Positions 1 through 12,348 of a stretch of 12,348 bases of DNA are shown piece after piece. The notes under the pieces were generated by a model, which saw nothing but the letters and a program-made list of their open reading frames with translations, was not told the DNA's origin and made no database searches. The translations under genes and the position numbers were made by a program. Source of the DNA: a virus (lineage: Duplodnaviria; Heunggongvirae; Uroviricota; Caudoviricetes); IMG/VR virus record IMGVR_UViG_2671180921_000029, positions 1-12,348 of that record; one strand, written 5' to 3'. Numbering within the stretch: position 1 is the first letter of the stretch; each line of letters begins with the position of its first letter.

Positions 1-1020
1 CTACTTACTGACCACAAGCGGCAAATCCAGTGTTGGCGTGATTTTGGTTTTACGATCGTAAATCAACACCTGATTTTCTGTTTTGTGTCCACTGAAAATT
101 TGTTTGTCGCGACTGCTGCCTTCGTAATCTGAAATCCCTTTGGCTTTTATGTCATGGAAGTTGCACCCAAACGGAACGCCGGCTTTTTGCTCGGCTGCAC
201 GTTTAGCCTGATTCCACCAGTTGTTCAGCGTCTTGGCTATTACCTTCCCGCCTTTGGTTGTGTTGATCACATATTCGCATGTGCCGGAAGATACATTTCG
301 GGCTAACTGGATCGCCGTACGTAATCGTGGAGACCATTCCTTGATTTGTTTGGTGCCGGTCTTGTTTTGCTCAATGTAAATCCCTTTGTCCATAATATCC
401 TGCCATTTCAGCTCGAGCACATCACCGAGCCTTGCCGCACAGAGATAGGATATCTCCATTGCAATACGTAACTGTGGAATTGCTTCCGCATATATCGCAG
501 CATACTGTTCATCGGTGATGTAAACAGTACGGGCTTTAAGCGTGAATTTTCTGACTCCTTTGCATGGATTATTTTGCACATACCCACGCTCATATCCCCA
601 TCCGTATACGCGACTCAGACTTGCCAGTTCATGGTTTGCCTGGGTCTTGCTCTCAAGACCCCGCTTATCCATGAAAATTCTTACCTGCTCAATTTTTACA
701 TTATCAGCAAGCATTTTCCCGAATACCGCCAGTAATGCCCTTTGATGTTGCCGATAATCTTTTTGGGTTCGGGGGGCCAGTTCTGTAAATGCAGGGGAGT
801 CCATAAACATGTGCCATAATTTAGCTACGGTCATTATGTCGTGGAGTTTTGCCTTTTCCAGTTCATAATTTTGCCAGACTTTAGCCACGCTGGTTTCCCG
901 CACTCTTCCGAGCTTTATCGTTCTTGTGCTTCCTTTGGGCTTCCATACGTAACTGTAACCATTCGATCTAACGCGCGGTGGCAGTACATTATCTTTTTTG
1001 TCTTTTCTTGGTCTTCCCAT
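1..1020 (-). CDS. int: Phage tyrosine integrase (339 aa); window begins at its stop codon, so attL lies outside the window to the left
   Basis: Long ORF at the prophage edge. C-terminal region has the tyrosine-recombinase pattern (ARLGDV..., HDIKAKG..., GHKTENQVLIYDRK with terminal catalytic Tyr candidate). Overlapped at its 5' end by a small basic xis-like ORF, as in lambda. Confidence 0.85.
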   Translation of the reverse strand: MGRPRKDKKDNVLPPRVRSNGYSYVWKPKGSTRTIKLGRVRETSVAKVWQNYELEKAKLHDIMTVAKLWHMFMDSPAFTELAPRTQKDYRQHQRALLAVFGKMLADNVKIEQVRIFMDKRGLESKTQANHELASLSRVYGWGYERGYVQNNPCKGVRKFTLKARTVYITDEQYAAIYAEAIPQLRIAMEISYLCAARLGDVLELKWQDIMDKGIYIEQNKTGTKQIKEWSPRLRTAIQLARNVSSGTCEYVINTTKGGKVIAKTLNNWWNQAKRAAEQKAGVPFGCNFHDIKAKGISDYEGSSRDKQIFSGHKTENQVLIYDRKTKITPTLDLPLVVSK

Positions 1021-1240
1021 TATTCAGTGCCTCAAAATCGGGGTCAGCAGAAACCAGTTCAGATACTTTTGACATTGCTGTTAGTCCACGTGGAATATCA
1101 CAGCGTAGAACTATCGGCTCGTTTTTAGGCCCGATTAAAAATGGGATGCCGTGCAGTCTTAACTGGTGTTGCTGTCTTGTGTATCGCTTGTATTTCGTGA
1201 TCTCTTGAATCTCTGCTGGCGATAGAGTTAATTCATACAT
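989..1240 (-). CDS. xis: Excisionase-like small DNA-binding protein (83 aa), overlapping the int start by 32 nt
   Basis: Position directly upstream of and overlapping int. Starts MYELTL (lambda Xis starts MYLTL) and ends in a basic tail (GKTKKRQKR). No clear SD upstream, so the exact start is uncertain. Confidence 0.6.
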   Translation of the reverse strand: MYELTLSPAEIQEITKYKRYTRQQHQLRLHGIPFLIGPKNEPIVLRCDIPRGLTAMSKVSELVSADPDFEALNNGKTKKRQKR

Positions 1241-1306
1241 GTGGTCACGTGCCTTACAGCATGACCGCCGCCAATATAATTCGGAGGCGGCGATCAGGGT
1301 TGAACA

Positions 1307-3787
1307 TTAAAAATCAGCCTGACTCGGGATCATTTTTTGTATCGTGGCTGTAACGTATTTTGCCTGGTGACGGGCGTCATCCAGTGCATTGTGGCGCACG
1401 CCTTCGAATGGAATAAAGGTTCTGGCATCAAAGTCGATTGTTTTTCCCAGCTCAACGATTGTGCGTACATCGCGATCGTTGTGGTAGCGCCACGGGCAGG
1501 GGATGTCCAGACGTTCGTATGAGGTGCGCAAAATTGCGTTATCGAAAGTTGCACCATTACCCCATACCTGAACGAATTTTTCATCTGAGTATTCGTTGAT
1601 GAACTCCCGAAACCGCGAAAGGGCATCCTTCAGTTTTACCTGGTCTGTTAAAATGGCAGCTCTGGCTTCACTGGACTGCTTCAGCCACCATTCGATGGTT
1701 CCACCGTCAGGAACAGCCCCTGTATTCATTGCGTCAGTCAGACTGATAACGATATAAAATACTGGCCCGATTTCCCCTGTTTGTGGGTCGAAGAAAACCG
1801 CACCAATAACCACGATGGGCGCATTGGTGTTGGTTCCCATTGTTTCAAGGTCGATCATCAGGTGGTACCACACTCTGCTGGTGGATGTGATAACGTGATG
1901 ACCGTTCACCGCAATTAAGGGAGCTGCCGTCTCGCCAGTTTCATTATCGCTGGCGTGGTCCTGAGCGCTGCCAGCATTCTCCTTGTGTGGATGTTCAGCG
2001 CCTTCCATTTCCTCCGGATCATTTTCCTGAACTTCAACCTGATTCTCTTCATCGAATGTTTCCTGGTATGTTGCGTCGCCCATCACGGCGCCACAATCAG
2101 GGCAGTTGCCGCCACCGCTCTGACCGCAGGCGGTGCAGACTTTTTCCGCTTCCTGTTGCGCTACTGGCTCAGGTTGTTTCGTTTCTGGCTCGTTTTGTAA
2201 CGCATTTTGGCTGTTTTGTTCCGCTTTCTGGTCGTTCTGTTCCGTTTCTTGCTGGTTCTGATTCACTGAATCGCGGGTTTCAATCCCCTTCACCCATTTC
2301 GGATCATTCGGGTCGCTAATCCCTGCAACAAATTCACCACGTGATGCGGCGAGCAACTGATTGGCGTCAGGCTGGCTGATATTGGCTGCCTGCATAATTT
2401 TCTTTACTTCGTCAGCGGTAACTTTTACCGGTTCTGGTTGTTCAGAATTTTGTGCGGTATTTGCATTTTGCGGTAAGCCTGTGTATGTGCCATTTTTTCG
2501 GGCAAAATATTCTTCTTTTGTGATTTCAGTAGCCCCTGCAGTCAGCGCCTTATTCAGACCAGAAAGTTTGTTTGCGCGACCGTATTTTTCGCCATCCTTG
2601 TCGGTGAAGAGGAAGTAGAACGGCCCCTCACGCTCTACAGATGGTTCGATTTCCACTTTGCATTCGGTTTTTTCGTTGTCCGGAATTGCCGTTTCCACTG
2701 CATCAGTTTCTGGTACTGGCGATGAGAGAGTATCAGTTGCGCTCTGATTTGTTCCTTCATCTTCAAACACGCCCTTTGTAGTCAGGTATTCAGTAATGTA
2801 TTTGTTCAGTGCCACAGGGTCTTTGTGAATGTCGATCGGACGTTCACGGACAAGGCCAAAAATAGTCTGGCGGTCGTAGCGAAGGGCATCAGGCTGTTTG
2901 CGCATTGATGCCGAGATACGCTTCCAGTCTTCACGGTCGTTGTCGATAACTTCATTTTTTGCCCAGCGATGGATGCTGCCGTCAATGTTTCCGGCATCCA
3001 CATCACCAGGCCAGAGAGCGTAGGCCAGTTCGTCATCCAGTGTTTTCCATGTCTGCTTGTATTCGCGATGAATGGCAGCAATGACCGGGCTGATTTTTCC
3101 TGTTGAATTTTCAGTGTGCTGTTGATTGGCTCTGGCGCGGGCGAGATCAACAACAGACGTGTATTTTCCGGTTTCCTTGCGTTCACCTTCGCGACGTTTT
3201 TTCCAGATGCGCATCTCTGCCTGAATTTCGGGCCATTTGGCACCTGGCTTACATTTATGCTTAACCCACCCGATGGCATGCAGCTTAAGCTCCGGATACA
3301 TGGCGTTAACTTCTGGCATTTTCATCAACGCTTCAACGATATGTCCGTCGAATGTTGCCATGTCTTCCTGCAACAGTTCCTGCGCACTAATCACCATATC
3401 AACGGTGATGTTTTCACATGTGTCGAACTTAACCATGACAGCGTTCTGTACTTCAGGGGCCAGCTTGTCAAAAGTGACGTTCATCGGATCTGATTCAGTC
3501 TCAACCGGGACAAAGGAAGCAGAGTCCTCATCCCAGCGGTTTTCCTGCATATATTCAGCATCCCAGGAATCGAGGGCAGGGCGGGGTATACCGGGTTTAT
3601 CCTCGCAAACAAGAAATTTATAAGCGCAGTCCTGAGCAGCCGGATATTGCTCCAGGAATTGCCAGGTAAATTTGGCACGGGCGCGGCGTTCGTCACCGGC
3701 TTCAATGGCAGTGGCTACAGCAATTGCACCTTCTTCCTTTATTGCCTGTTCGTCCGGAATGGCGGCGCAAATAAAGACTTTACTCAT
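1307..3787 (-). CDS. Large phage exonuclease (826 aa) with C-terminal DEDDh/DnaQ-like 3'-5' exonuclease domain; often annotated as exodeoxyribonuclease VIII-like in related prophages
   Basis: C-terminal ~187 aa (nt ~1310-1870) carries DEDDh motifs: MIDLETMG, WGNGATFDNAIL, HNALDDARHQ. Central acidic/Gln-rich low-complexity linker and a CxxC-(9)-CxxC zinc ribbon (CTACGQSGGGNCPDCG, nt ~2090-2130). Weak SD (GAGGT, 9-nt spacer) before the ATG at 3787. Confidence 0.8.
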   Translation of the reverse strand: MSKVFICAAIPDEQAIKEEGAIAVATAIEAGDERRARAKFTWQFLEQYPAAQDCAYKFLVCEDKPGIPRPALDSWDAEYMQENRWDEDSASFVPVETESDPMNVTFDKLAPEVQNAVMVKFDTCENITVDMVISAQELLQEDMATFDGHIVEALMKMPEVNAMYPELKLHAIGWVKHKCKPGAKWPEIQAEMRIWKKRREGERKETGKYTSVVDLARARANQQHTENSTGKISPVIAAIHREYKQTWKTLDDELAYALWPGDVDAGNIDGSIHRWAKNEVIDNDREDWKRISASMRKQPDALRYDRQTIFGLVRERPIDIHKDPVALNKYITEYLTTKGVFEDEGTNQSATDTLSSPVPETDAVETAIPDNEKTECKVEIEPSVEREGPFYFLFTDKDGEKYGRANKLSGLNKALTAGATEITKEEYFARKNGTYTGLPQNANTAQNSEQPEPVKVTADEVKKIMQAANISQPDANQLLAASRGEFVAGISDPNDPKWVKGIETRDSVNQNQQETEQNDQKAEQNSQNALQNEPETKQPEPVAQQEAEKVCTACGQSGGGNCPDCGAVMGDATYQETFDEENQVEVQENDPEEMEGAEHPHKENAGSAQDHASDNETGETAAPLIAVNGHHVITSTSRVWYHLMIDLETMGTNTNAPIVVIGAVFFDPQTGEIGPVFYIVISLTDAMNTGAVPDGGTIEWWLKQSSEARAAILTDQVKLKDALSRFREFINEYSDEKFVQVWGNGATFDNAILRTSYERLDIPCPWRYHNDRDVRTIVELGKTIDFDARTFIPFEGVRHNALDDARHQAKYVTATIQKMIPSQADF

Positions 3788-3910
3788 TTTGTTTTAACCT
3801 CATGACATATTTAAGGATGAACAAATCCCTGCCATTGCTGGCATATAAGAATCAAATCTGATGTATTCATTAAGCTGAATGTCGTATTGTGGCAGTTATT
3901 TTATTACTGC

Positions 3911-4132
3911 TCACCATGACTCTGCTTTTACAGGTAAACCATCACGACCAAGGAAGACTTTAATCATGGTTTCCTTAATACAGTGTTGTGTGGAAAAATC
4001 ACGAATATAGAGCCGTTGTTTTTTAATGTTGTTTACCGAAGCAATATATGTTCTTCCTTTATGAATAACATAATCACCGGGAGTCACGCACTGACGAGGA
4101 ATCTCATCAGTTCCGAAGTGATGAGCAATCAT
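3911..4132 (-). CDS. Hypothetical small protein (73 aa); start moved to the internal ATG at 4132
   Basis: ORF-track ORF 3911..4144. The ATG at 4130-4132 is preceded by a strong SD (aaATGGAGGTaattATG), whereas the upstream ATG at 4144 has none. No recognisable motif. Confidence 0.55.
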
Positions 4133-4697
4133 AATTACCTCCATTTTTACAAATGAACTTTGTTGATGCGGTGCCTGGTGCCTCCAGGTGACGTTAACCA
4201 GTTAACAATTAATGCCGGATACAGAGAATCCACCCATAACACTGTTTTTGGTTTTAACTGTTCCGCGTGCGCTTAGCCGCATTCACCGCATCACAAAATT
4301 CACTTTAAAAAGGGCGGCAGAGCAGTCACGGAGTAAAACTGATACCGCCAAACGCCACCAGAAAATTGATAACAGAGGGCGTTGTAGCGGGGTTGTCACT
4401 TAAGCGTATGGTCAACCTGACAACCCGGTGTCCTCAACGGGGAAGGAATAACCCCGCCATACTTACCGCCGCGCCATTTCGCGGAGTGCCACAACCGGAA
4501 GCGCACGGTCGACGAAAATTTAACGACAGGCTATCTATGAACCAGCAACCTCGCCGTGCGCTTTCGCGTTATGCTCTGACTTTTCAGAGAAATATCCTTT
4601 CAGTAAACTGTCAGTGCCGGATGCTCACCCGTGTCCGGCGCACGCACTCCACTTCACCCGTGGAGAACTCCTTAATTACCAACCCTCAGGAGGGTGA

Positions 4698-4931
4698 ATG
4701 TTAAAATCAACTCTTATTGCTAAATGCCTTTATCAAAATCGCATGGTAAGCAGCATTTCAATAGGCGAGTCTGCAGTTAAAAGTATTTTCGAAGAGTACT
4801 TTCCCGGGCATGATTTTAATAAATGGAATACCAAATTACCGCCAGCAGTTTCAACGCGTATTCTGAAAGCAACTGAAAGAGCAAGTACAATTCGCGTTAA
4901 CTATTTCATTAAAGATTTGTGGGATCTTTGA
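4698..4931 (+). CDS. Hypothetical protein (77 aa) on the strand opposite the leftward operon; 3' end overlaps the convergent gene at 4909..5316 by 23 nt
   Basis: Near-consensus SD (cAGGAGGgtgaATG). Sits in an AT-rich segment that differs by eye from the GC-rich flank to its left. No recognisable family. Confidence 0.5.
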   Translation: MLKSTLIAKCLYQNRMVSSISIGESAVKSIFEEYFPGHDFNKWNTKLPPAVSTRILKATERASTIRVNYFIKDLWDL

Positions 4932-5316
4932 TATCCACAGAGCCTAAAGTATGTGCATATGGATGTGCTATTGTGCGCCCTCGCAGATTTGCATCATTTT
5001 CTAAATTCACTGAACGAAACAGGGCATCAACAAGGCTCTGTACAATGCAAAGGCAATCGAAGACTGTCGCCGTTTCTGTTTTGATTGATGAAAGAACATG
5101 GCCATTCACGCAAACAGAAATTACCCGTTTATTAACATCGCTTTCCTGCTTTTGATTATCAGAACCATATAGCCCAGAAAAAGCATTGCGCACATTACGA
5201 ACCATATTATCGATGGTTTCTTTTTTGGTGTATGCCGGGTCAATTTTCACCAGACTATCACCGAGAGTCGTTGCAGCAATTGTCTGGATTTCTTTTGGTA
5301 AATCTTTAAATTCCAT
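4909..5316 (-). CDS. Hypothetical protein (135 aa)
   Basis: ORF with SD-like ACGAGG 7 nt before the ATG. AT-rich codon composition like its neighbours. No recognisable motif. Confidence 0.6.
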   Translation of the reverse strand: MEFKDLPKEIQTIAATTLGDSLVKIDPAYTKKETIDNMVRNVRNAFSGLYGSDNQKQESDVNKRVISVCVNGHVLSSIKTETATVFDCLCIVQSLVDALFRSVNLENDANLRGRTIAHPYAHTLGSVDIKDPTNL

Positions 5317-5338
5317 TATTAGCCTCGTTGGTTAGCTA

Positions 5339-5557
5339 TTAACGTGGGTATGTAATCATTCTGGCAATGCTTAATGCCGCTGCTTTTTCCAGATTGGTGA
5401 TATCCTGCTCCAGAGCGGACAGATTTTCAGCCTGCTTAGCCCTGGCTTCATTGGCCCATTTCAGATCCTGCGCTGCATTAATTTTCTGGCGCATCCACTC
5501 ATAAAGTTCATCATCGGTATAGTCTGGCGCGATGATGACGGGTTCTCGTTTCTGCAT
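5339..5557 (-). CDS. Hypothetical small protein (72 aa), probably helical
   Basis: Strong SD (CAAGGAGccgacATG). Stop lies 22 nt upstream of the next gene's start, suggesting co-transcription with 4909..5316. Confidence 0.6.
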   Translation of the reverse strand: MQKREPVIIAPDYTDDELYEWMRQKINAAQDLKWANEARAKQAENLSALEQDITNLEKAAALSIARMITYPR

Positions 5558-5649
5558 GTCGGCTCCTTGTGGTTAGCGTTGCCTGCTTTTAACCACGTCA
5601 GGCGAGGTGGTATCCTCTGAGGGATCTGTTACTCGAGAGGAAATTGGTT

Positions 5650-5850
5650 ATGAATACAATCAAGTTTTCTTGCCCAGAATGTGGCGGCGAAGTCTTTGAC
5701 ACATCCTTTAAACCGCATGGCTCTGACAGTTTCGCGGGAGCCATCTGCAAAAATTGTGGTCACCTTGTAACTGAAGATGAGTCCTCGCAGTTCGATGACG
5801 AAATCGTTGACAATATCTTCGGTGCACTCACCAGAGACTTTCTGAAGTAA
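5650..5850 (+). CDS. Small zinc-ribbon protein (66 aa; CPEC-x22-CKNC)
   Basis: Two CxxC pairs (KFSCPECGG ... AICKNCGH) typical of a zinc ribbon. GAGAGG SD 9 nt before the ATG at 5650 (the ORF track starts 6 nt earlier at a TTG). A perfect hairpin plus T-tract 46 nt downstream is oriented for this strand. Conflicts with the overlapping minus-strand ORF 5629..5985. Confidence 0.5.
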   Translation: MNTIKFSCPECGGEVFDTSFKPHGSDSFAGAICKNCGHLVTEDESSQFDDEIVDNIFGALTRDFLK

Positions 5851-5895
5851 AGGCGCATACCGCTTAGTTACCGCTCTGATAACTCTTACCTGTCC

Positions 5896-5941
5896 GGCAA
5901 TGGCGCTGATGTCAATATAAAGCGCCATTGCCGCTTCTTTG
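5896..5941 (+). terminator. Candidate rho-independent terminator: perfect 12-bp inverted repeat with 13-nt loop, followed by a T-rich tract
   Basis: GGCAATGGCGCT (5896-5907) pairs with AGCGCCATTGCC (5921-5932), followed by gCTTCTTTg. The T-tract is present only in the plus-strand orientation. Confidence 0.5.
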
Positions 5942-6159
5942 CCGATCCCGGGATGCCTTCCATTCTGATGTTTGACTTCGCCCACTGAGAAACCCTCTGT
6001 TTCCCCTTAACGCCGGGGTAGCGGAACAAAAACCTGCTGCATAGTTATTAAAGTTGAACCCTGCCGTCATGTTCTTACGCCTCGGGCTGGCTACTTAACC
6101 CCTGACCACTGCCGGGTAACTCGAAGTATTGCCCTGCGTTCTGTGGGGCGGGGTGGGTT

Positions 6160-6196
6160 GGTATTTTTAGTTTAATAAACATTAAACTTAAGTCAA
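6160..6196 (-). promoter_or_regulatory. PL-like leftward early promoter (-35 TTGACT, 16-nt spacer, -10 TAAACT read on the minus strand), an inverted copy of the PR-like element
   Basis: Plus 6191-6196 agtcaa and 6169-6174 agttta are the reverse complements of the TTGACT and TAAACT hexamers at 7184-7189 and 7208-7213. The surrounding ~30 bp is an inverted near-copy of 7175-7205. Confidence 0.4.
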
Positions 6197-6280
6197 GCAA
6201 AAACTAAACCGTGGGGCGTAACAAACACAACGCTTTTGGTAAAGTCGTTGCGGTTGTTATGTTTCTATTGGTAGTTAAAG

Positions 6281-6559
6281 TTAGGGAAACTGGCGTCTTG
6301 CGTGGATCACGTTTACTACTTCAACGCTTGATGTTGTTACGCGGTATAGAATTATATAGTTAGGGTGGGCCACAATCTCACGCAAGCCAGGTACTCTGTC
6401 GCTTGGTGGGTATAAATACGGATGTTCGGATAACGGCAGCACACAACCCCTTAATCGCTGCCATAAGCGTTCAGCCGCATCTATGTCGAAACGAGCAATA
6501 TAACTGGTTATATCATCTAGGTCGGTATCTGCGTTTTCAAGCCATAACACGGGTAACAT
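6281..6559 (-). CDS. parE2: ParE/RelE-family type II toxin (92 aa), ParE2-like
   Basis: Start moved to the internal ATG (MLPVLWLENADTDLDDITSYI...), giving the canonical 92-aa size. C-terminus LREIVAHPNYIILYRVTTSSVEVVNVIHARRQFP is typical of ParE/RelE. Start lies 1 nt after the upstream antitoxin stop. The sequence matches my recollection of E. coli O157 ParE2. Confidence 0.85.
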   Translation of the reverse strand: MLPVLWLENADTDLDDITSYIARFDIDAAERLWQRLRGCVLPLSEHPYLYPPSDRVPGLREIVAHPNYIILYRVTTSSVEVVNVIHARRQFP

Positions 6560-6560
6560 T

Positions 6561-6752
6561 TTACTGCTTGCTCCGTTCCTTGCGCATTCTAGCAAAGCGT
6601 TCTGCCATTCTGCGCTCAACTTCGTCATGGGGAATTGCTGGGCGCGGATCTGCAAGGCTCGTTGCTACTTTCGCACGCAGCCATTCGTTGTAACTGTTTT
6701 CTTGTTCAATGGTTTCAAATTCAGAAACCATTGGTGAAAGGGCTCTATTCAT
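6561..6752 (-). CDS. paaA2: PaaA2-type antitoxin (63 aa)
   Basis: Internal start MNRALSPMVSEFETIEQENSYNEWLRAKV... preceded by a strong SD (GGAGGaaacATG). Size and sequence match my recollection of PaaA2. Lies immediately upstream of the ParE toxin on the same strand. Confidence 0.85.
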   Translation of the reverse strand: MNRALSPMVSEFETIEQENSYNEWLRAKVATSLADPRPAIPHDEVERRMAERFARMRKERSKQ

Positions 6753-6772
6753 GTTTCCTCCGGTTTTATAAC

Positions 6773-7144
6773 TTAGGCGCGGCGGCATTTTTGCGCCGCA
6801 ATCCATCTCGCTATGAGATCTTCCATTGATTCTTTTTTCTGCTTTAACTCGCTGATTATCTGGCGTTGCTCATCCTCAGGGAAGGCTGAAAAAATCTGCA
6901 ATAATTCCAGTTGATTAGACGTTAACCCTGCATGTGGTGGAGAAATCTCCGGTTGTTCTGCGTATTCCGCATCCAGATACCCTTCCGGCATCCCGTATGT
7001 TTGCTCTATTCTTCTGGCAGCCTTTTCTCCAAACGAGGCCCTCCCACTCATTAGTTGAGATAGGTAGCTCTTCTCTTTGGGTGGCAGAGTTTTATCTTTA
7101 AACCACTCCTTGAGACGTAAACGGCGAATTTCTTTTTTCTGCAT
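6773..7144 (-). CDS. paaR2: PaaR2-type HTH transcriptional regulator (123 aa from the ATG at 7144), in the cI-repressor position
   Basis: XRE-type HTH-like segment (KSYLSQLMSGRASFGEKAARRIEQ). Divergent from a Cro-like gene and first gene of the paaA2-parE2 operon. Start ambiguous: ATG at 7144 (weak SD) or GTG at 7207, which would place the start inside the promoter/operator repeats. Confidence 0.75.
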   Translation of the reverse strand: MQKKEIRRLRLKEWFKDKTLPPKEKSYLSQLMSGRASFGEKAARRIEQTYGMPEGYLDAEYAEQPEISPPHAGLTSNQLELLQIFSAFPEDEQRQIISELKQKKESMEDLIARWIAAQKCRRA

Positions 7145-7183
7145 GTGGTAATTATCTTTAGTAATCACTAAACAAGCAAATAC

Positions 7184-7241
7184 TTGACTTAATGGTTTAT
7201 TAAACACTAAACTCGCAAGAAAACACTAAACCGAGGAAGGT
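7184..7241 (+). promoter_or_regulatory. PR-like rightward promoter (-35 TTGACT 7184-7189, 18-nt spacer, -10 TAAACT 7208-7213) with CACTAAAC operator-like repeats
   Basis: Hexamers at sigma70-like spacing upstream of the Cro-like gene. CACTAAAC occurs at 7166-7173, 7205-7212 and 7224-7231, overlapping the -10 and leader. SD GAGGAAGG precedes the ATG at 7242. Confidence 0.5.
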
Positions 7242-7544
7242 ATGACATTAAAAGAGTTTATTAAATCATTGAGGGTTGGTGATGCTAAGAAATTCGCGGC
7301 CAGACTTGGTGTATCGCCATCTTACTTATCGCAAATGGCGTCCAGACGAGCAGCTATATCTCCAACCCGCGCCCTTATGATCGAATCTGCGACGGAAGGC
7401 CAAGTAAGTAGGGCGGAGCTACGACCCCATGATTGGGAGCTTATTTGGCCTGAGTATGCTAGCGGCATTCGTTTGGGGCAAACGCATGTAGTTCATGCTG
7501 AAGGTGATTGTAGTGCATGCTTATCTGATGGAGTTGATTCATGA
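7242..7544 (+). CDS. Cro-like HTH regulator, YdaS-type (100 aa)
   Basis: HTH segment (FAARLGVSPSYLSQMASRRAAISPTRALMIESAT). Divergent from the repressor-like gene and first gene of the rightward operon. Confidence 0.8.
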   Translation: MTLKEFIKSLRVGDAKKFAARLGVSPSYLSQMASRRAAISPTRALMIESATEGQVSRAELRPHDWELIWPEYASGIRLGQTHVVHAEGDCSACLSDGVDS

Positions 7545-7966
7545 AAATCAAGCATGAACACATCCGCATGGCGATGAATGCCTGGGCGCATCCGGACGGC
7601 GAAAAAGTTCCGGCAGCTGAAATAACCCAGGCTTATTTTGAGCTGGGTATGACGTTCCCGGAGCTATATGACGACAGGCATCCGGAAGCGCTGGCTCGTA
7701 ATACCCAGAAAATTTTCCGTTGGCTGGATAAAGACACCCCTGATGCGGTTAAAAAAATTCAGGCATTGTTACCAGCGATCGAAAAAGCAATGCCTCCTCT
7801 GCTGGTGGCCCGAATGCGCAGCCACAGTTCAGCCTGGTTTCGGGAGCTGGTGGAGACGCGGGAACGACTGGTGAGAGACGCTGATGATTTTGTCGCAGTG
7901 GCGATCGCTGGTTTCAACCAGATGAATCGTGGTGGCCCGGCGGGAAACATTGTGGTTGTGCATTGA
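7541..7966 (+). CDS. YdaT-type protein (141 aa) in the CII position
   Basis: Start overlaps the upstream stop (ATGA), with GGAG SD 7 nt upstream. N-terminus MKIKHEHI... resembles the YdaT family as I recall it. Confidence 0.7.
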   Translation: MKIKHEHIRMAMNAWAHPDGEKVPAAEITQAYFELGMTFPELYDDRHPEALARNTQKIFRWLDKDTPDAVKKIQALLPAIEKAMPPLLVARMRSHSSAWFRELVETRERLVRDADDFVAVAIAGFNQMNRGGPAGNIVVVH

Positions 7967-8037
7967 CTGACAATATTTATACCGGATCGCTTCCGGCAAT
8001 TCGTGAGTAAAAAGATTCGGTATCAGAAGAGGTGAGT

Positions 8038-9108
8038 ATGGCTAACGCCTGGCTCAGATTATGGCATGACATGCCAAATGATCCTAAGTGGCGAACAATT
8101 TCCAGGGTGTCAGGACAGCCAATCGCAACAGTGATGGCTGTGTATATCCACCTCCTGGTGAGCGCGTCACGAAATGTCACGCGAGGTCACATTGATGTCA
8201 CGACAGAAGATTTGGCAAGTGCGCTCGACGTGACAGAAGAGGTAATTGATTCAATTTTGCAGACGATGCAGGGGCGGGTACTTGATGGTGATTTAATCAC
8301 TGGATGGGAAAAACGCCAGGTGCTTAAAGAGGACAACGGCAATATTTCGCAAACCGCAAAATCTCCTGCAGAGCGCAAGAGGGCGCAGCGAGAGAGGGAA
8401 AGAAAGCGGGAACAAAATGGCGATTGTCACGGCGCGTCACGAAATGTCACGCACATGTCACGGCAAGTCACGACAGATAAAGATACAGATAAAGATACAG
8501 ATAAAGAAGATCAAAACACTATGGTCCATGGCGTAAAAAACGCCACGAACCAGGCAGGGGATGTTCAGACCGTCAATCCTGGTCAGCCAGCAGGCACGAC
8601 ACCGAAAGCCGATTCAGCGTATGCGCTGAAAGCCGATTCGGGCGCTGTGCAGCAGGTGATGACCGCAAGGCCGGAGCAATCACTCCAACTGCAGCAGCCT
8701 GAAGCCGATTCCGCCATTCAGCGGGAAGCCGATCGGGTAGCCCCGGAAAACACCGGGCAGCCTGTGGGACGAGTGGATTATCCAGATGTGTTCGAACAGG
8801 TCTGGCGGGAATACCCGTTGCGTGCCGGGGCAAACCCGAAGAAATCCGCTTTCAGTGCCTGGAAGGCCAGATTACGCGAGGGGGTGCCACCAGAAGCCAT
8901 GCTGGATGGTGTGAGGCGTTACGCAAGATACCTGGTGGCTACCGGGAAAACGGGAACGGAATTTGTTCAGCGAGCGACGACGTTTTTTGGACCGGACCGG
9001 AATTTTGAAAACCCCTGGTTGCTCCCGGTAAGCGGTACGAACAACCAGCGTTGCGTGAATCACATTTCTGAACCAGATACCGAAATTCCACCGGGCTTCA
9101 GGGGGTAA
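8038..9108 (+). CDS. Putative replication initiator / replisome-organiser protein (356 aa) with the origin embedded in its coding sequence
   Basis: Position after the cro/cII-like genes. SD GAGGTGA before the ATG at 8038 (the ORF track starts at a GTG at 8032). The gene contains iteron-like repeat arrays (see repeat features), as in lambda O / ori. Low-complexity linker between N- and C-terminal domains. Confidence 0.6.
   Translation: MANAWLRLWHDMPNDPKWRTISRVSGQPIATVMAVYIHLLVSASRNVTRGHIDVTTEDLASALDVTEEVIDSILQTMQGRVLDGDLITGWEKRQVLKEDNGNISQTAKSPAERKRAQRERERKREQNGDCHGASRNVTHMSRQVTTDKDTDKDTDKEDQNTMVHGVKNATNQAGDVQTVNPGQPAGTTPKADSAYALKADSGAVQQVMTARPEQSLQLQQPEADSAIQREADRVAPENTGQPVGRVDYPDVFEQVWREYPLRAGANPKKSAFSAWKARLREGVPPEAMLDGVRRYARYLVATGKTGTEFVQRATTFFGPDRNFENPWLLPVSGTNNQRCVNHISEPDTEIPPGFRG
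8164..8201 (+). repeat. Iteron array 1: four GTCAC(G) copies at 10-11 bp spacing
   Basis: GTCAC at 8166, 8176, 8186 and 8197. Includes the 19-bp string gcgtcacgaaatgtcacgc, which recurs exactly at 8434-8452. Confidence 0.7.
8426..8472 (+). repeat. Iteron array 2: five GTCACG copies at 10-11 bp spacing
   Basis: GTCAC at 8426, 8436, 8446, 8457 and 8467, with helical-turn periodicity. Confidence 0.7.
8474..8509 (+). repeat. Tandem 12-bp repeat (CAGATAAAGATA x3, last copy degenerate), A-rich, abutting iteron array 2
   Basis: Read directly from the sequence. Encodes DKDTDKDTDKE in the rep protein linker. Confidence 0.75.
8606..8735 (+). repeat. Four dispersed direct repeats of AAGCCGATYC at 24/72/24 bp spacing
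   Basis: Copies at 8606-8615, 8630-8639, 8702-8711 and 8726-8735 (last copy AAGCCGATCG). They encode a reiterated K/E-A-D-S/R peptide motif. Confidence 0.6.
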
Positions 9109-9148
9109 GTGTTTATTTCAGGTCACGAGGTAATTTTCAGGAGGACTT

Positions 9149-9571
9149 GTGGCAAAAGTTTTTACACAAGAAGAGCGAGAAAAAATTAAAGGGCAGGTTG
9201 TTGAACTCGTACGCCAGAGTGGGCGTGAGACGTTACGGCAACTGGAAGTCAAGACAGGTGCGACAAGATATCTGATGAGCGTTCTCGCAAGAGAGCTGGT
9301 TGCCAGCGGTGATGTATACAACTCTGATTACGGGTTATTCCCGTCTGAACAGGTGCGTAAGGACTGGCAAAATGCCCGTAAAAAGCTCTCAAGGGCAAAG
9401 CTGAAGAAACCATCTGCGGTTGATCCGGACCTTATCTGGTCATTACCAGACGGAGAAATACGCCGCTACGACAGGCGTCAGAACATAATCTGTAGCGAGT
9501 GCCGGAAGAGCGAAGTTATGCAGCGCGTGCTGGCTTTTTATCGGGGAAACTTTCAGGAGGTGCTGTTGTGA
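9149..9571 (+). CDS. Hypothetical protein (140 aa), GTG start
   Basis: SD GGAGGA 4 nt before the GTG at 9149. Lies downstream of the rep gene. No recognisable motif. Confidence 0.5.
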   Translation: MAKVFTQEEREKIKGQVVELVRQSGRETLRQLEVKTGATRYLMSVLARELVASGDVYNSDYGLFPSEQVRKDWQNARKKLSRAKLKKPSAVDPDLIWSLPDGEIRRYDRRQNIICSECRKSEVMQRVLAFYRGNFQEVLL

Positions 9572-9719
9572 GCCAAATTAACAATCGGAACTTGGTGAAG
9601 AGAAAGCATAATCCAAATCTGAATAATTAAATTGAGCACTGTTAAAAAATTAATCCTTAACCGGAGGGATTTCTGCACCCTCAGAACAGCAGGAGGCCAC
9701 CAGAAAGGGCGGTAGTGAA

Positions 9720-9902
9720 ATGCGAAAGTTCAAAATAATTATTGAAACTGGAATAGCTGGTGGGGGTTTTGAGGATGTATTCGAAGTGGATGATGACGCA
9801 ACACCTGATGAAATTCATGACGAAGCAAAAGAAATTTTCTTTAACTACTGCAATTACTCATATCACGAAATAAAAGACGAGGAGGAAGAACAAAATGGCT
9901 GA
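9720..9902 (+). CDS. Hypothetical small acidic protein (60 aa)
   Basis: ORF with a weak SD. First gene of a translationally coupled string of small genes. Confidence 0.45.
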   Translation: MRKFKIIIETGIAGGGFEDVFEVDDDATPDEIHDEAKEIFFNYCNYSYHEIKDEEEEQNG

Positions 9903-10077
9903 TTTTGGTTCAACTAAATACAACGTCAGTTTTAAAGAATGGCATGAACTGTTAATGGACTATGCAGAGTTACGCGGTGGAAGTGCTGCTGATGCTGATG
10001 CTGAAGCATGGCGTGATGATTATGAAGCAGGGAAAACTCCGGTCGAAGCATATTGTGATGAGTGGGGCGATGAATGA
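9895..10077 (+). CDS. Hypothetical small acidic protein (60 aa)
   Basis: Strong SD (GAGGAGGAAG) 6 nt before the ATG. Start overlaps the previous gene's stop by 8 nt. Confidence 0.55.
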   Translation: MADFGSTKYNVSFKEWHELLMDYAELRGGSAADADAEAWRDDYEAGKTPVEAYCDEWGDE

Positions 10078-10631
10078 GCGGGATTAACTATCAGATGCTG
10101 CGGGATAAGGCAGAGAACGCAACTAAAGGAGGCTACATCGTAGGGCATACATCTGTTAACCAGCACGGTAATTTAACAGGAGTTTTTGTTTGTCAAAAAT
10201 GGAAAGGAGAACCAGGTGGCGTGATTGCAGAATGTCATGCTAACTGCCTGGTTGAAACAGATGCTCAGGCTTATGCAAACGCAGAATTCATAGCAGAGGC
10301 TAGCCCGGCTACCGTGCTGGCACTACTGGATGAACGGGAAGCAGCCAACAAGCGCATAGCAGAACTGGAAGCACGGGAAATAAAACCAGCCAAAGGCGAA
10401 GTTCTTGTCGTTGTATCTGGTTTTACTGGTTGCGGAAAAAGCGCCATCGCCGGGGAAATAGAAATCGCGATGAAGGCTATTGGTGTACCGGTTAAGTGGA
10501 CTAATGGCGATGCAGAAAAGCGCATGACTGGCGCTGACTGGCTGACAGCGATTGAGATGTACAAACCAACTGTGCGCATCGTGGAAGTTAATGTGCCACG
10601 CGCCGCTGGCATTCGCATCAAAGGAGAGTGA
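10074..10631 (+). CDS. Phage protein (185 aa), possibly Ead/Ea22-like
   Basis: ATGA start/stop overlap with the upstream gene. The motif ANAEFIAEASPATVLALLDEREAANKRIAELEA resembles the conserved N-terminal motif of lambdoid Ead/Ea22-like proteins as I recall it. Confidence 0.55.
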   Translation: MSGINYQMLRDKAENATKGGYIVGHTSVNQHGNLTGVFVCQKWKGEPGGVIAECHANCLVETDAQAYANAEFIAEASPATVLALLDEREAANKRIAELEAREIKPAKGEVLVVVSGFTGCGKSAIAGEIEIAMKAIGVPVKWTNGDAEKRMTGADWLTAIEMYKPTVRIVEVNVPRAAGIRIKGE

Positions 10632-10632
10632 T

Positions 10633-10842
10633 ATGGCTATCGCTGCAAGTTACACCATGCATCTCTATTGTGATTGCCTCCAGTGTACAGATGGCAAATA
10701 TAAGTCGCCAGACTTCGGTGAGTATATAGGTACGTCATGGGCTGGCTGTGCAAAAGAGGCGCGCAAGGATGGCTGGCGAATAAGCAAAGACAAAACGCGT
10801 GCTTTTTCACCCGGGCATAAAGTTTTGAGGATTAACAAATGA
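10633..10842 (+). CDS. Hypothetical Cys-containing small protein (69 aa); start moved to the ATG at 10633
   Basis: Strong SD (AAGGAGAGtgatATG) before the internal ATG. The upstream part of the ORF-track ORF overlaps the preceding gene. Confidence 0.5.
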   Translation: MAIAASYTMHLYCDCLQCTDGKYKSPDFGEYIGTSWAGCAKEARKDGWRISKDKTRAFSPGHKVLRINK

Positions 10843-11648
10843 CAACATTTACCGACGACGACAAGAAACTAATTAAAGAAATCAAAGAGCGTATCAGCAG
10901 CCCGGAGGTTCGAGACGATATTGAGCGCCGGGCTTATGAAATAGCGTTAGCCTCGCTGGAAGCAGAGCCGGTGGCATGGCTGCATTCAGACAATGGCTTA
11001 GGTATTCCGGCAATAACGAGGAGTAAAAACATTGCTGACAGTTGGTTATCAAAGAGCTGGTATGTTCAGCCGCTATATATAGCCAAGCCAGTGCCGGTGG
11101 TGCCAGATGCTCGTCCGTCTTTAAATAATGGCATAGTCGGCTTTGATGAAGGCTGGAACGCTTGCCGCGCCGCCATGATTCATGCCGGAAACTTTCGGGA
11201 AAACTTGAATTCGTCAACCAATAATTTTCGGGAAATTGCGGAAACGTCAATCAACTCTCCGGTAGTTCCTGGTGAGGTGTTGTCCGCAATCCGGGAGGTT
11301 GCCAGGGTTCGTGCCGATTTCGATGATTTTGACGGTGACAGGCGAGGTATCGGTGATTGTCTGAATGAGTCTGAGCAAGAGCTTATCGTTACCATTAACA
11401 AATATGCCAGTCAGATTGCAGCAAAGCCGCCGCAGGAGGAGAAGAGTGGGAACGCTGACTGTACCGCCACTTCTGGTAAAACTGACAATCCACAAGCATC
11501 CGGAAAACAGGTTGATGAATTAACCATGTTGGTTAAGCGATTAGCCAGTTCGTTAAAAAGCGTCAATAAATCAAGTAAGCTGCCTGATAAGGCGATGGAT
11601 TATCTTTTGCGGAACGGACTGGTAAGTGTGGAGGGGAGGGGACGATGA
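10839..11648 (+). CDS. Hypothetical phage protein (269 aa)
   Basis: ATGA overlap with the upstream gene and GAGGA SD. Long ORF with ordinary composition. Confidence 0.6.
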   Translation: MTTFTDDDKKLIKEIKERISSPEVRDDIERRAYEIALASLEAEPVAWLHSDNGLGIPAITRSKNIADSWLSKSWYVQPLYIAKPVPVVPDARPSLNNGIVGFDEGWNACRAAMIHAGNFRENLNSSTNNFREIAETSINSPVVPGEVLSAIREVARVRADFDDFDGDRRGIGDCLNESEQELIVTINKYASQIAAKPPQEEKSGNADCTATSGKTDNPQASGKQVDELTMLVKRLASSLKSVNKSSKLPDKAMDYLLRNGLVSVEGRGR

Positions 11649-11728
11649 CCTGGCCTGAGGCATTTACCACGGTAGGGATTGCAATGGCCGTGGCGTTGGT
11701 GGTGTATTCGATTTGCCGCTGGGGGTAA
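11645..11728 (+). CDS. Candidate 27-aa hydrophobic peptide (MTWPEAFTTVGIAMAVALVVYSICRWG), translationally coupled to the upstream gene
   Basis: Below the ORF-track size cutoff. ATGA overlap with the upstream stop, SD GGAGGGGAGGGG just upstream, and one predicted transmembrane helix. Confidence 0.3.
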   Translation: MTWPEAFTTVGIAMAVALVVYSICRWG

Positions 11729-11875
11729 GGTATTAAAGAATGCCCCCGCACACATAAGTTGAGCGTCTGAGGTGTGGGGATAGGGAGTTAGTTAAATTGT
11801 TATACAACAATATCTGATTTTGTATTGAAGCAAGGAAGAGGTTGCCACATATTGAATCATGCACGTGTACGTCAA

Positions 11876-11980
11876 ATGTGGGAGGTCATCGTGCTGGTTC
11901 TGAAATGTGCGCTGGCTATTGCGGTTGTAATGGCAATTTATTGTCTTGTTATCGTTCTTATGGATCACCTTTCTGATTGA
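11876..11980 (+). CDS. Candidate 34-aa hydrophobic peptide (MWEVIVLVLKCALAIAVVMAIYCLVIVLMDHLSD); alternative GTG start at 11891 with GGGAGG SD
   Basis: Below the ORF-track cutoff. Single strongly hydrophobic helix resembling small type I toxin or membrane peptides. Sits in an intergenic region upstream of hok. Confidence 0.3.
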   Translation: MWEVIVLVLKCALAIAVVMAIYCLVIVLMDHLSD

Positions 11981-12192
11981 TTTTATATTGGCGAGGTGAC
12001 GGGAGTTAAGTAGAATTGCTGCGGGTGCTTGAGGCTGTCTGCCTCAGGCATGAACACCAAAAGGCAGATAGAGAAAAGCCCCAGTTAACATTACGCGTCC
12101 TGCAAGACGCTTAACATTAATCTGAGGCCATATCTATGCTCTACACACGTAGGTTAGCCTCTTACGTGCCGAAAGGCAAGGAGAAGCAGGCT

Positions 12193-12348
12193 ATGAAGCA
12201 GCAAAAGGCGATGCTAATCGCCCTGATCGTCATCTGTTTAACCGTCATAGTGACGGCACTGGTAACGAGGAAAGACCTCTGCGAGGTACGAATCCGAACC
12301 GGCCAGACGGAGGTCGCTGTCTTCACAGCTTACGAACCTGAGGAGTAA
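12193..12348 (+). CDS. hok: Hok/Gef-family type I toxin (51 aa), HokD/RelF-like; stop codon is the last triplet of the window
   Basis: MKQQKAMLIALIVICLTVIVTALVTRKDLCEVRIRTGQTEVAVFTAYEPEE has the Hok architecture (N-terminal TM helix, then RKxLCE...). SD AAGGAG 9 nt upstream. The ORF track shows an in-frame 19-codon upstream extension from 12136. Confidence 0.85.
   Translation: MKQQKAMLIALIVICLTVIVTALVTRKDLCEVRIRTGQTEVAVFTAYEPEE

Follow-up and report, generated by a model that had tools for sequence, protein, structure and literature searches.

The 12,348-nucleotide (nt) stretch analysed here (positions 1 to 12,348 of IMG/VR record IMGVR_UViG_2671180921_000029, Caudoviricetes; hereafter the window) comes from a Rac/Qin-like lambdoid prophage of Escherichia coli, of which it covers the left and early part, and it carries two very short open reading frames (ORFs) upstream of a hok gene. 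We conclude, with a probability of roughly 60%, that ORF1 (27 amino acids, aa) and ORF2 (29 aa) are genuine genes, each separate from the other and each encoding a single-pass inner-membrane micro-peptide of lambdoid prophages, that they are neighbours and not components of hok, and that they work by the mechanism proposed below. Our confidence is high for the description of the genes and their modules, and low to moderate for the mode of action. The two peptides are new, uncharacterized families of a familiar kind, the prophage small membrane proteins, which makes them useful and not startling.

As the peptides are very short, searches were made with padded queries and DNA patterns. Among 64 distinct DNA variants of ORF1 at IMG/VR loci, 60 keep the start, frame and stop, with the stop varying between TAA and TGA, and the length variants found among database proteins are all in-frame. 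Substitutions in ORF1 favor third codon positions (39, 29 and 85 parsimony steps at the first, second and third positions), and the ratio of nonsynonymous to synonymous polymorphism (pN/pS) is 0.32 in frame compared with 0.96–1.87 in four other frames; it is 0.36 in the antisense frame whose third positions coincide with those of ORF1. For ORF2, 27 of 29 variants are intact and the corresponding steps are 9, 8 and 22. Its coding part is the slowest to change within its module, with 0.63–0.83 steps per site versus 1.87 in its own promoter and leader and 1.18 in the promoter and leader of hok. A copy of ORF2 on the Shigella virulence plasmid pINV, 80% identical in DNA, shows many synonymous changes and has the GTG start replaced by ATG, and the hydrophobic core is retained in a diverged 34-aa homologue at 62% DNA identity. 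Measured against the diverged lineage described below, the nonsynonymous to synonymous divergence ratio (dN/dS) is 0.16 for ORF1 and 0.39 for ORF2, and the chance that an open frame with a hydrophobic core survives random mutation is estimated at p ~0.006 and ~0.004, respectively. Alternative frames and minus-strand ORFs annotated in phage HannyBb were considered and rejected, having worse pN/pS values or stops in the consensus. Conservation in related prophages had been proposed as a check by the first-pass annotation of this DNA, and it is borne out: both frames are maintained across diverged copies with codon-phased substitution. ORF1 is almost certainly a genuine gene, and ORF2 very probably is one as well.

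Both the position and the 27-aa length of ORF1 are exactly as first annotated, and so is its coupling to the 269-aa gene before it, whose TGA stop overlaps the ATG of ORF1. This overlap is a general property of the peptide gene. All 90 non-redundant contexts have a TGA that overlaps with the start as [A/G]TGA (ATGA in 89, GTGA in one); in about 71 of these the overlapped TGA closes an upstream ORF of 13–303 codons, while the other 19 have a second TGA immediately upstream in the reading frame (ATGATGA). The upstream genes vary among relatives, with at least three unrelated sequence families of upstream ends, and a GGAGG-type Shine-Dalgarno sequence (SD) precedes the start by 5–12 nt in all listed contexts across at least three such families. 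ORF1 therefore shows the properties of a coupled cistron: its start overlaps the preceding stop, its SD is located in the upstream ORF, and the arrangement is conserved from one context to the next. This concerns ORF1 only. Some database entries present ORF1 as the C-terminal tail of an upstream protein (‘DUF551, partial’), which we ruled out since the frame differs and the upstream genes are many and unrelated. The transmembrane (TM) helices expected from the first annotation are also predicted by hydropathy: the best 19-residue Kyte-Doolittle window reaches 2.11 in ORF1 and 2.97 in ORF2, each well above the transmembrane threshold.

ORF2 had originally been described as a free-standing 34-aa single-helix peptide with a strong SD. 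Its free-standing, hydrophobic single-helix nature is supported and the 34-aa ORF does exist, but the start codon, the length and the SD assignment were wrong in detail. The GGGAGG at 11880–11885 falls within the 34-aa ORF and serves the GTG at 11891, and a reading of the sequence before ATG 11876 found no purine-rich SD-like motif. In most type-A relatives (as distinct from the diverged type-B lineage below) the codon at the ATG 11876 position is ATA or GAG. The GTG is kept in relatives and is an ATG at the same position on pINV (pWR501), and an AGGAGG or GGGAGG SD is kept in all type-A relatives. Since the ATG at 11876 is mostly not kept while the GTG and its SD are, the conserved product is the 29-aa peptide MLVLKCALAIAVVMAIYCLVIVLMDHLSD. 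The diverged lineage starts at the ATG 11876 position with its own upstream SD, which makes the 34-aa form an ancestral or alternative isoform; in the window it is possibly a minor one.

ORF2 lies in a module of ~175 bp with sharp limits: homology among relatives starts near 11820 and, in relatives lacking hok, stops ~12 nt after the ORF2 stop. Ahead of the gene is the hexamer pair TTGAAG-17-CATATT. Among 70 non-redundant relatives and pINV the two hexamers have been kept, with each of the six −10 positions at ≥90%, and the spacer between them has diverged. We read the pair as a putative weak sigma-70-like promoter of ORF2, with a predicted transcription start near 11860. The predicted leader of ~30 nt is unstructured, and a small 5′ hairpin was seen on inspection not to be conserved in REL606 or pINV. 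A short leader element, GTGTACGTC, is conserved at ~80% or above in each of its columns among 70 sequences (and at ≥90% in most columns), with adjoining leader bases that vary. No structured RNA, riboswitch or attenuator was found in the module, the z-scores being +0.44 for the sense fold of 11860–12022 and −0.84 for the antisense strand. We accordingly rejected ORF2 as a leader peptide or attenuator of a downstream gene, as there is no significant structure and transcription of hok has a promoter of its own, located downstream of ORF2. A terminator search found none from the ORF2 stop up to the hok promoter, its sole hit being an AT-rich hairpin inside the ORF, so the ORF2 transcript likely reads through into the hok leader. 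The module is bracketed in the window by two copies of a 13-nt direct repeat, 92% identical and spaced 163 nt apart. The left copy extends into the −35 of the promoter-like element of ORF2 and the right copy into that of hok. The repeats may be the trace of a duplication or recombination at the site.

ORF1, ORF2 and hok are separable mosaic modules that share an insertion hot-spot. In phage 933W, ORF1 is followed 210 nt on by hokW, with no ORF2; in ArgO145 and strain 95-3322 it is followed by a type II toxin–antitoxin (TA) locus on the other strand (ParDE in 95-3322); and it also occurs without any adjoining toxin locus. REL606, HannyBb, Tritos and mEp460 have ORF2 and hok and no ORF1, the ORF2 module being commonly fused to hok at a fixed spacing of ~211 nt. 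At about 17 IMG/VR loci, hok is missing and the gene after ORF2 is a convergent one, which by our reading of its sequence resembles tehB. On pINV (L246, Shigella flexneri pWR501, 2501–2587), an intact ORF2 homologue with an ATG start, MLVLKGTLAIAAVMTIYCLIVVLMERFSD, lies ~290 nt upstream of icsP, accompanied by a promoter of the hok type and no more than the first ~55 nt of a hok leader; it has the appearance of a prophage remnant left upstream of icsP. In all, 143 plasmid records matched, mostly from Shigella.

For an estimate that is unbiased regarding the peptides, we used a sample seeded on the hok promoter, with 134 distinct upstream contexts. Type-A ORF2 is present in 65 of these, type-B ORF2 in 18 and neither in 51, and in these three groups ORF1 was scored in 15, 14 and 22 contexts, respectively. 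The four type-B contexts scored as lacking ORF1 do carry its counterpart on inspection, with point changes missed by the pattern; two have premature stops. By these counts there is no general association between ORF1 and ORF2, but the pair recurs in two diverged arrangements. Five hok-promoter-seeded contexts appear to retain only the last six ORF2 codons (MDHLSD, then the stop) behind unrelated residues, and such remnants would be a mosaic junction inside ORF2. The earlier suggestion that the peptides form a cluster of membrane-active proteins with hok is weakly supported: the units are separable, and one lineage has both peptides in tandem before hok.

That lineage, type B, was found among the hok-promoter-seeded IMG/VR loci in at least 18 distinct contexts (for example u85, u93 and u98), where diverged copies of both peptides stand in tight tandem. 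The order is ORF1′ (MNWPEAFAITGVAMAIAFLVYVICRWG, ATGA-coupled), a 37-nt spacer with AAGGAGG, ORF2′ (MSDDISLAMEGALAVIAVVGVYCLVVFLMDRLGN, 34 aa), a perfect 22-nt palindrome (CGATATGGGAATTCCCATATCG) and the hok promoter. Direct repeats GGGTAAAAACG flank ORF2′ and the palindrome, and the arrangement in 933W, with the ORF1 stop directly before AAAACGGTTTGCGG, thus looks like a deletion product. A Y-C-L motif in ORF2 and a C-R-W motif in ORF1 are kept in both lineages, and both peptide pairs have diverged similarly (synonymous divergence, dS, of 1.4 and 1.1).

Among 5,426 complete E. coli genomes, ORF1-like DNA is present in 1,532 (28%), with up to 6 copies per genome, and ORF2-like DNA in 1,926 (35%). 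Protein matches also name Salmonella, Shigella and E. albertii. A scan of one genome per species gave nothing credible beyond Escherichia and Shigella, with three tiny contigs of unrelated taxa that look like contamination. Both ORFs had been called unannotated, which is mostly true, as RefSeq almost never annotates either; a few exceptions occur in RefSeq and GenBank. In the RefSeq records inspected, no feature lies under the ORF2 matches except in one genome (WP_000960667.1, a 90-nt, 29-aa coding sequence), and a few GenBank entries give a ‘membrane protein’ of 29 aa or a ‘bacteriophage protein’ of 27 aa. The supplements of the O157 Sakai small-gene study contain no match to the peptides, and the hokW-sokW paper does not mention ORFs upstream.

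Neither peptide matches a toxin or any other family in Pfam, NCBIfam or PADLOC at E-values up to 1–10, and comparison with sequences in the Protein Data Bank (PDB) gave sub-threshold noise only. In PHROGs there is one weak match (E = 0.019), of ORF1 residues 1–23 to positions 33–54 of the 57 in phrog_4612, a family without assigned function; the alignment would agree with database entries in which the gene call for this peptide extends too far at the N-terminus. Known K-12 small proteins were also considered as relatives. Searches with tblastn gave no match to either peptide in the DLP12, Rac and Qin regions of MG1655, and YlcH, YlcG, YlcJ, YdfB, YdaG, YnfR, YnfS, YnfT and YnaM are unrelated to ORF1 and ORF2.

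In the mechanism that we propose, ORF1 would have no promoter of its own and would be the last cistron of the rightward early operon, translated by termination–reinitiation at the AUGA overlap behind a GGAGG site, so that translation of the early gene before it would each time also yield the peptide. ORF2 would be a self-contained cassette of ~175 bp, composed of a weak promoter, an SD and an ORF with a GTG start, which by virtue of its own promoter could be expressed from a repressed prophage. Each peptide is predicted to insert as one TM helix, with the distribution of charge suggesting an N-out/C-in orientation for ORF1 and N-in/C-out for ORF2. Both may bind to a larger membrane protein, of the host or the phage, and act in this way and not by killing. 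Small membrane proteins that bind larger ones in E. coli include AcrZ, MgtS, MgrB, KdpF and CydX.

Several observations weigh against this interpretation. The promoter-like pair of ORF2 has 8 of 12 consensus matches, which places it below the threshold of a promoter scan, and the 37-nt spacer of the type-B lineage leaves no room for a promoter of ORF2′. The codon periodicity of ORF2 is weaker with a tree from a longer region (13, 16 and 25 steps, p = 0.14), and its pN/pS within type A, 0.47 compared with 0.53–0.75 in other frames, discriminates modestly. A full-text literature search with substrings of either peptide found no paper. The role as regulator of a larger membrane protein is proposed by analogy. 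Lastly, an ORF2-family gene lies directly before 83 of the 134 hok promoters of this type (~62%), so that a functional tie to hok is conceivable.

In one form of such a tie, ORF1 and ORF2 would be a two-peptide membrane module that modulates, for example, the insertion, oligomerization or toxicity of Hok. The frequent position of ORF2 upstream of hok promoters fits this view, as do the type-B tandem of both peptides in its 18 or more contexts, the similar divergence of the two pairs and the motifs kept in both lineages. The peptides are, however, mostly found apart. ORF1 accompanies a smaller share of type-A ORF2 contexts (15/65) than of hok loci without ORF2 (22/51) and precedes ParDE-type loci or no toxin at all; ORF2 persists without hok; and linkage in mosaic phage genomes may reflect descent alone. 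We therefore consider such a module quite improbable. A different connection to hok would require no ORF2 peptide: the ~175 bp could be a cis-acting part of the hok locus, acting for instance as an upstream promoter of 5′-extended hok transcripts or by transcriptional interference, in which the frame is incidental and untranslated. A gap of just 8 nt, free of any terminator, separates the ORF2 stop from the hok −35, in most cases the module is joined to hok at its fixed distance, and one of the periodicity analyses is statistically weak. This explanation does not account for a retained SD and start, the switch from GTG to ATG, the shift of start site with a new SD in the diverged lineage, a hydrophobic core that outlasts divergence to 62% DNA identity (p = 0.004), a coding part that evolves most slowly, or a module that is intact without hok, and it is very improbable.

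The first-pass annotation had likened both peptides to type I toxins. ORF2, and less likely ORF1, would then be the toxin of an unrecognized or orphan type I TA system, a depolarizing peptide held in check by a cis-antisense RNA, its GTG start and its weak promoter. Both peptides do have the small size (<60 aa) and hydrophobic TM helix of such toxins, ORF2 is extremely hydrophobic, and its free-standing cassette adjoins a bona fide type I locus. There is also a promoter-like site on the minus strand, TTAACT-18-TAAAAT (12009–11980), that would fire antisense through ORF2 and whose TAAAAT is kept in ~60% of relatives. This site overlaps the hok promoter, and since its −35 lies inside that conserved promoter, its conservation is uninformative alone; the motif is lost in hok-less and pINV contexts, in which ORF2 stays intact. 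The search for antisense promoters, a check proposed with the original annotation, thus yielded no conserved one opposite ORF2 and none at all opposite ORF1. The long structured mRNA leader of type I toxins was not found either: that of ORF2 is short and unstructured, with an antisense strand that folds unremarkably, and ORF1 has no leader of its own. Besides the hok/sok leader, Rfam models detect no small RNA (sRNA) at the locus, and Sok as a shared antitoxin was rejected because its duplex energies with the start region of either peptide are within the range of shuffled sequences. Together with the lack of a toxin family match in Pfam, NCBIfam or PADLOC, these results do not bear out the toxin claim. 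For ORF1 it is made unlikely by the absence of a promoter and the coupling to ordinary early genes; for ORF2 it is possible, without positive support; and as an account of the locus we regard it as unlikely.

Relative to the reading that we prefer, of membrane micro-peptides that neighbor hok, the most far-reaching departure would be an ORF2-family peptide, possibly together with ORF1, that is a protein-level accessory of hok tuning Hok as an immunity factor, chaperone or enhancer, or else an orphan membrane toxin under undescribed regulation. We judge this distinctly unlikely; if true, it would add a protein component to the RNA-only hok/sok paradigm. The peptides are of wider interest in any case. 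About one third of the complete E. coli genomes searched have a match, including the laboratory strain REL606, and so do Shiga-toxin phages such as 933W; ORF2 is also present on the Shigella virulence plasmid upstream of icsP; and standard annotation omits both. They adjoin hok/sok, a model for RNA-controlled killing, and because they lie directly against hok, deletions or reporters made at hokD or hokW may unknowingly remove or include them. If transcription from ORF2 enters hok, or if the peptide interacts with Hok, the interpretation of prophage hok loci changes. Both peptides are easy, well-defined candidates for functional work on small proteins.

Table 1. Features of the two peptide genes and of the surrounding prophage region (coordinates in the window)
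Feature	Position	Strand	Remarks
ORF1	11645–11728	+	27-aa single-helix peptide MTWPEAFTTVGIAMAVALVVYSICRWG
ORF1 SD	11630–11641	+	GGAGGGGAGGGG
ORF2	11891–11980	+	29-aa single-helix peptide MLVLKCALAIAVVMAIYCLVIVLMDHLSD, GTG start
ORF2 SD	11880–11885	+	GGGAGG, 5 nt before GTG 11891
34-aa version of ORF2	11876–11980	+	from ATG 11876; lines up position for position with the 34-aa ORF2′ of the type-B lineage
ORF2 promoter-like pair	11825–11830, 11848–11853	+	TTGAAG, 17-nt spacer, CATATT
Conserved leader element	11865–11873	+	GTGTACGTC; no explanation found
13-nt direct repeat, left copy	11815–11827		TGATTTTGTATTG
13-nt direct repeat, right copy	11978–11990		TGATTTTATATTG; includes the ORF2 stop and the first bases of the hok −35
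269-aa early-operon gene	10839–11648	+	coupling partner of ORF1; TGA stop overlaps ORF1 start
hok promoter	11988–12016	+	TTGGCG-17-TAGAAT; −35 begins 8 nt after ORF2 stop
hok mRNA leader / sok region	12023–12198	+	Rfam RF01794, 117.8 bits
hok (HokD/HokW-type, 51 aa)	12193–12348	+	PF01848, E = 1.2e-23; neighbor of both peptide genes, part of neither
Integrase	1–1020	−	
826-aa exonuclease-domain protein	1307–3787	−	
DicF sRNA homologue	4312–4363	−	leftward early region; Rfam RF00039, 76.4 bits
YdaS/YdaT-like regulators, DUF977		+	
Ead/Ea22-like gene	10074–10631	+	

The remaining features of the window are summarized in Table 1. The 269-aa gene before ORF1 has PHROG matches of unknown function, its C-terminal residues 211–265 matching phrog_924, and the hok gene is labelled hokD in annotated relatives. 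The closest relative is E. coli Z1323CEC0003 (L002, 3735–4823), with 99.9% identity across the first 785 of 949 query bases. It is interrupted just before hok by a gene for an integrase-core-domain protein, which cuts hok off from most of its leader and which reads as an insertion sequence (IS) transposase. Chromosomal hok loci with IS elements inserted nearby have been described. The spacer between ORF1 and ORF2 (11729–11826) is common only to the closest relatives L001 and L003; it contains hairpins, such as CCCCGCACAC...GTGTGGGG, with no canonical terminator and a fold z-score of only −1.27. Downstream of ORF1, the 11 nt at 11758–11768 are 91% complementary to 12105–12115, 336 nt away in the hok leader near the sok region; this is probably chance.

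The peptides can be compared with several known systems. Like Hok/Gef (PF01848) and the other type I toxins of E. coli they are small, hydrophobic and membrane-directed, and they stand beside a real hok/sok locus, yet they have no family match and no Hok-like periplasmic domain. An overlapping frame of the mok type, a long folded leader and an antisense RNA that could be demonstrated are likewise absent. ORF2 resembles the morons of phages in being a compact cassette with a promoter-like element and sharp homology boundaries, placed at a site where hok, ParDE and the tehB-like gene are found inserted as well; it differs in having no terminator of its own before the hok promoter, and its promoter activity is predicted from the sequence only. 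With respect to the bacterial small membrane proteins (≤50 aa), there is no sequence relationship (the KdpF model gives E = 0.024, far below its cut-off), and ORF1 and ORF2 are located on prophages and not in core operons. The similarity is in their build, as both have 27–29 aa with one hydrophobic helix and short charged ends and are routinely missed by annotation, and ORF1 has a pattern of small residues (G11, A13, A15, A17). Finally, ORF1 matches the distal cistrons that are coupled by AUGA termination–reinitiation in its [A/G]TGA overlap at 90 of 90 starts and in having its SD inside the upstream coding sequence; in contrast to these, its 27-aa product is not the fixed partner of one protein and travels behind many unrelated genes.

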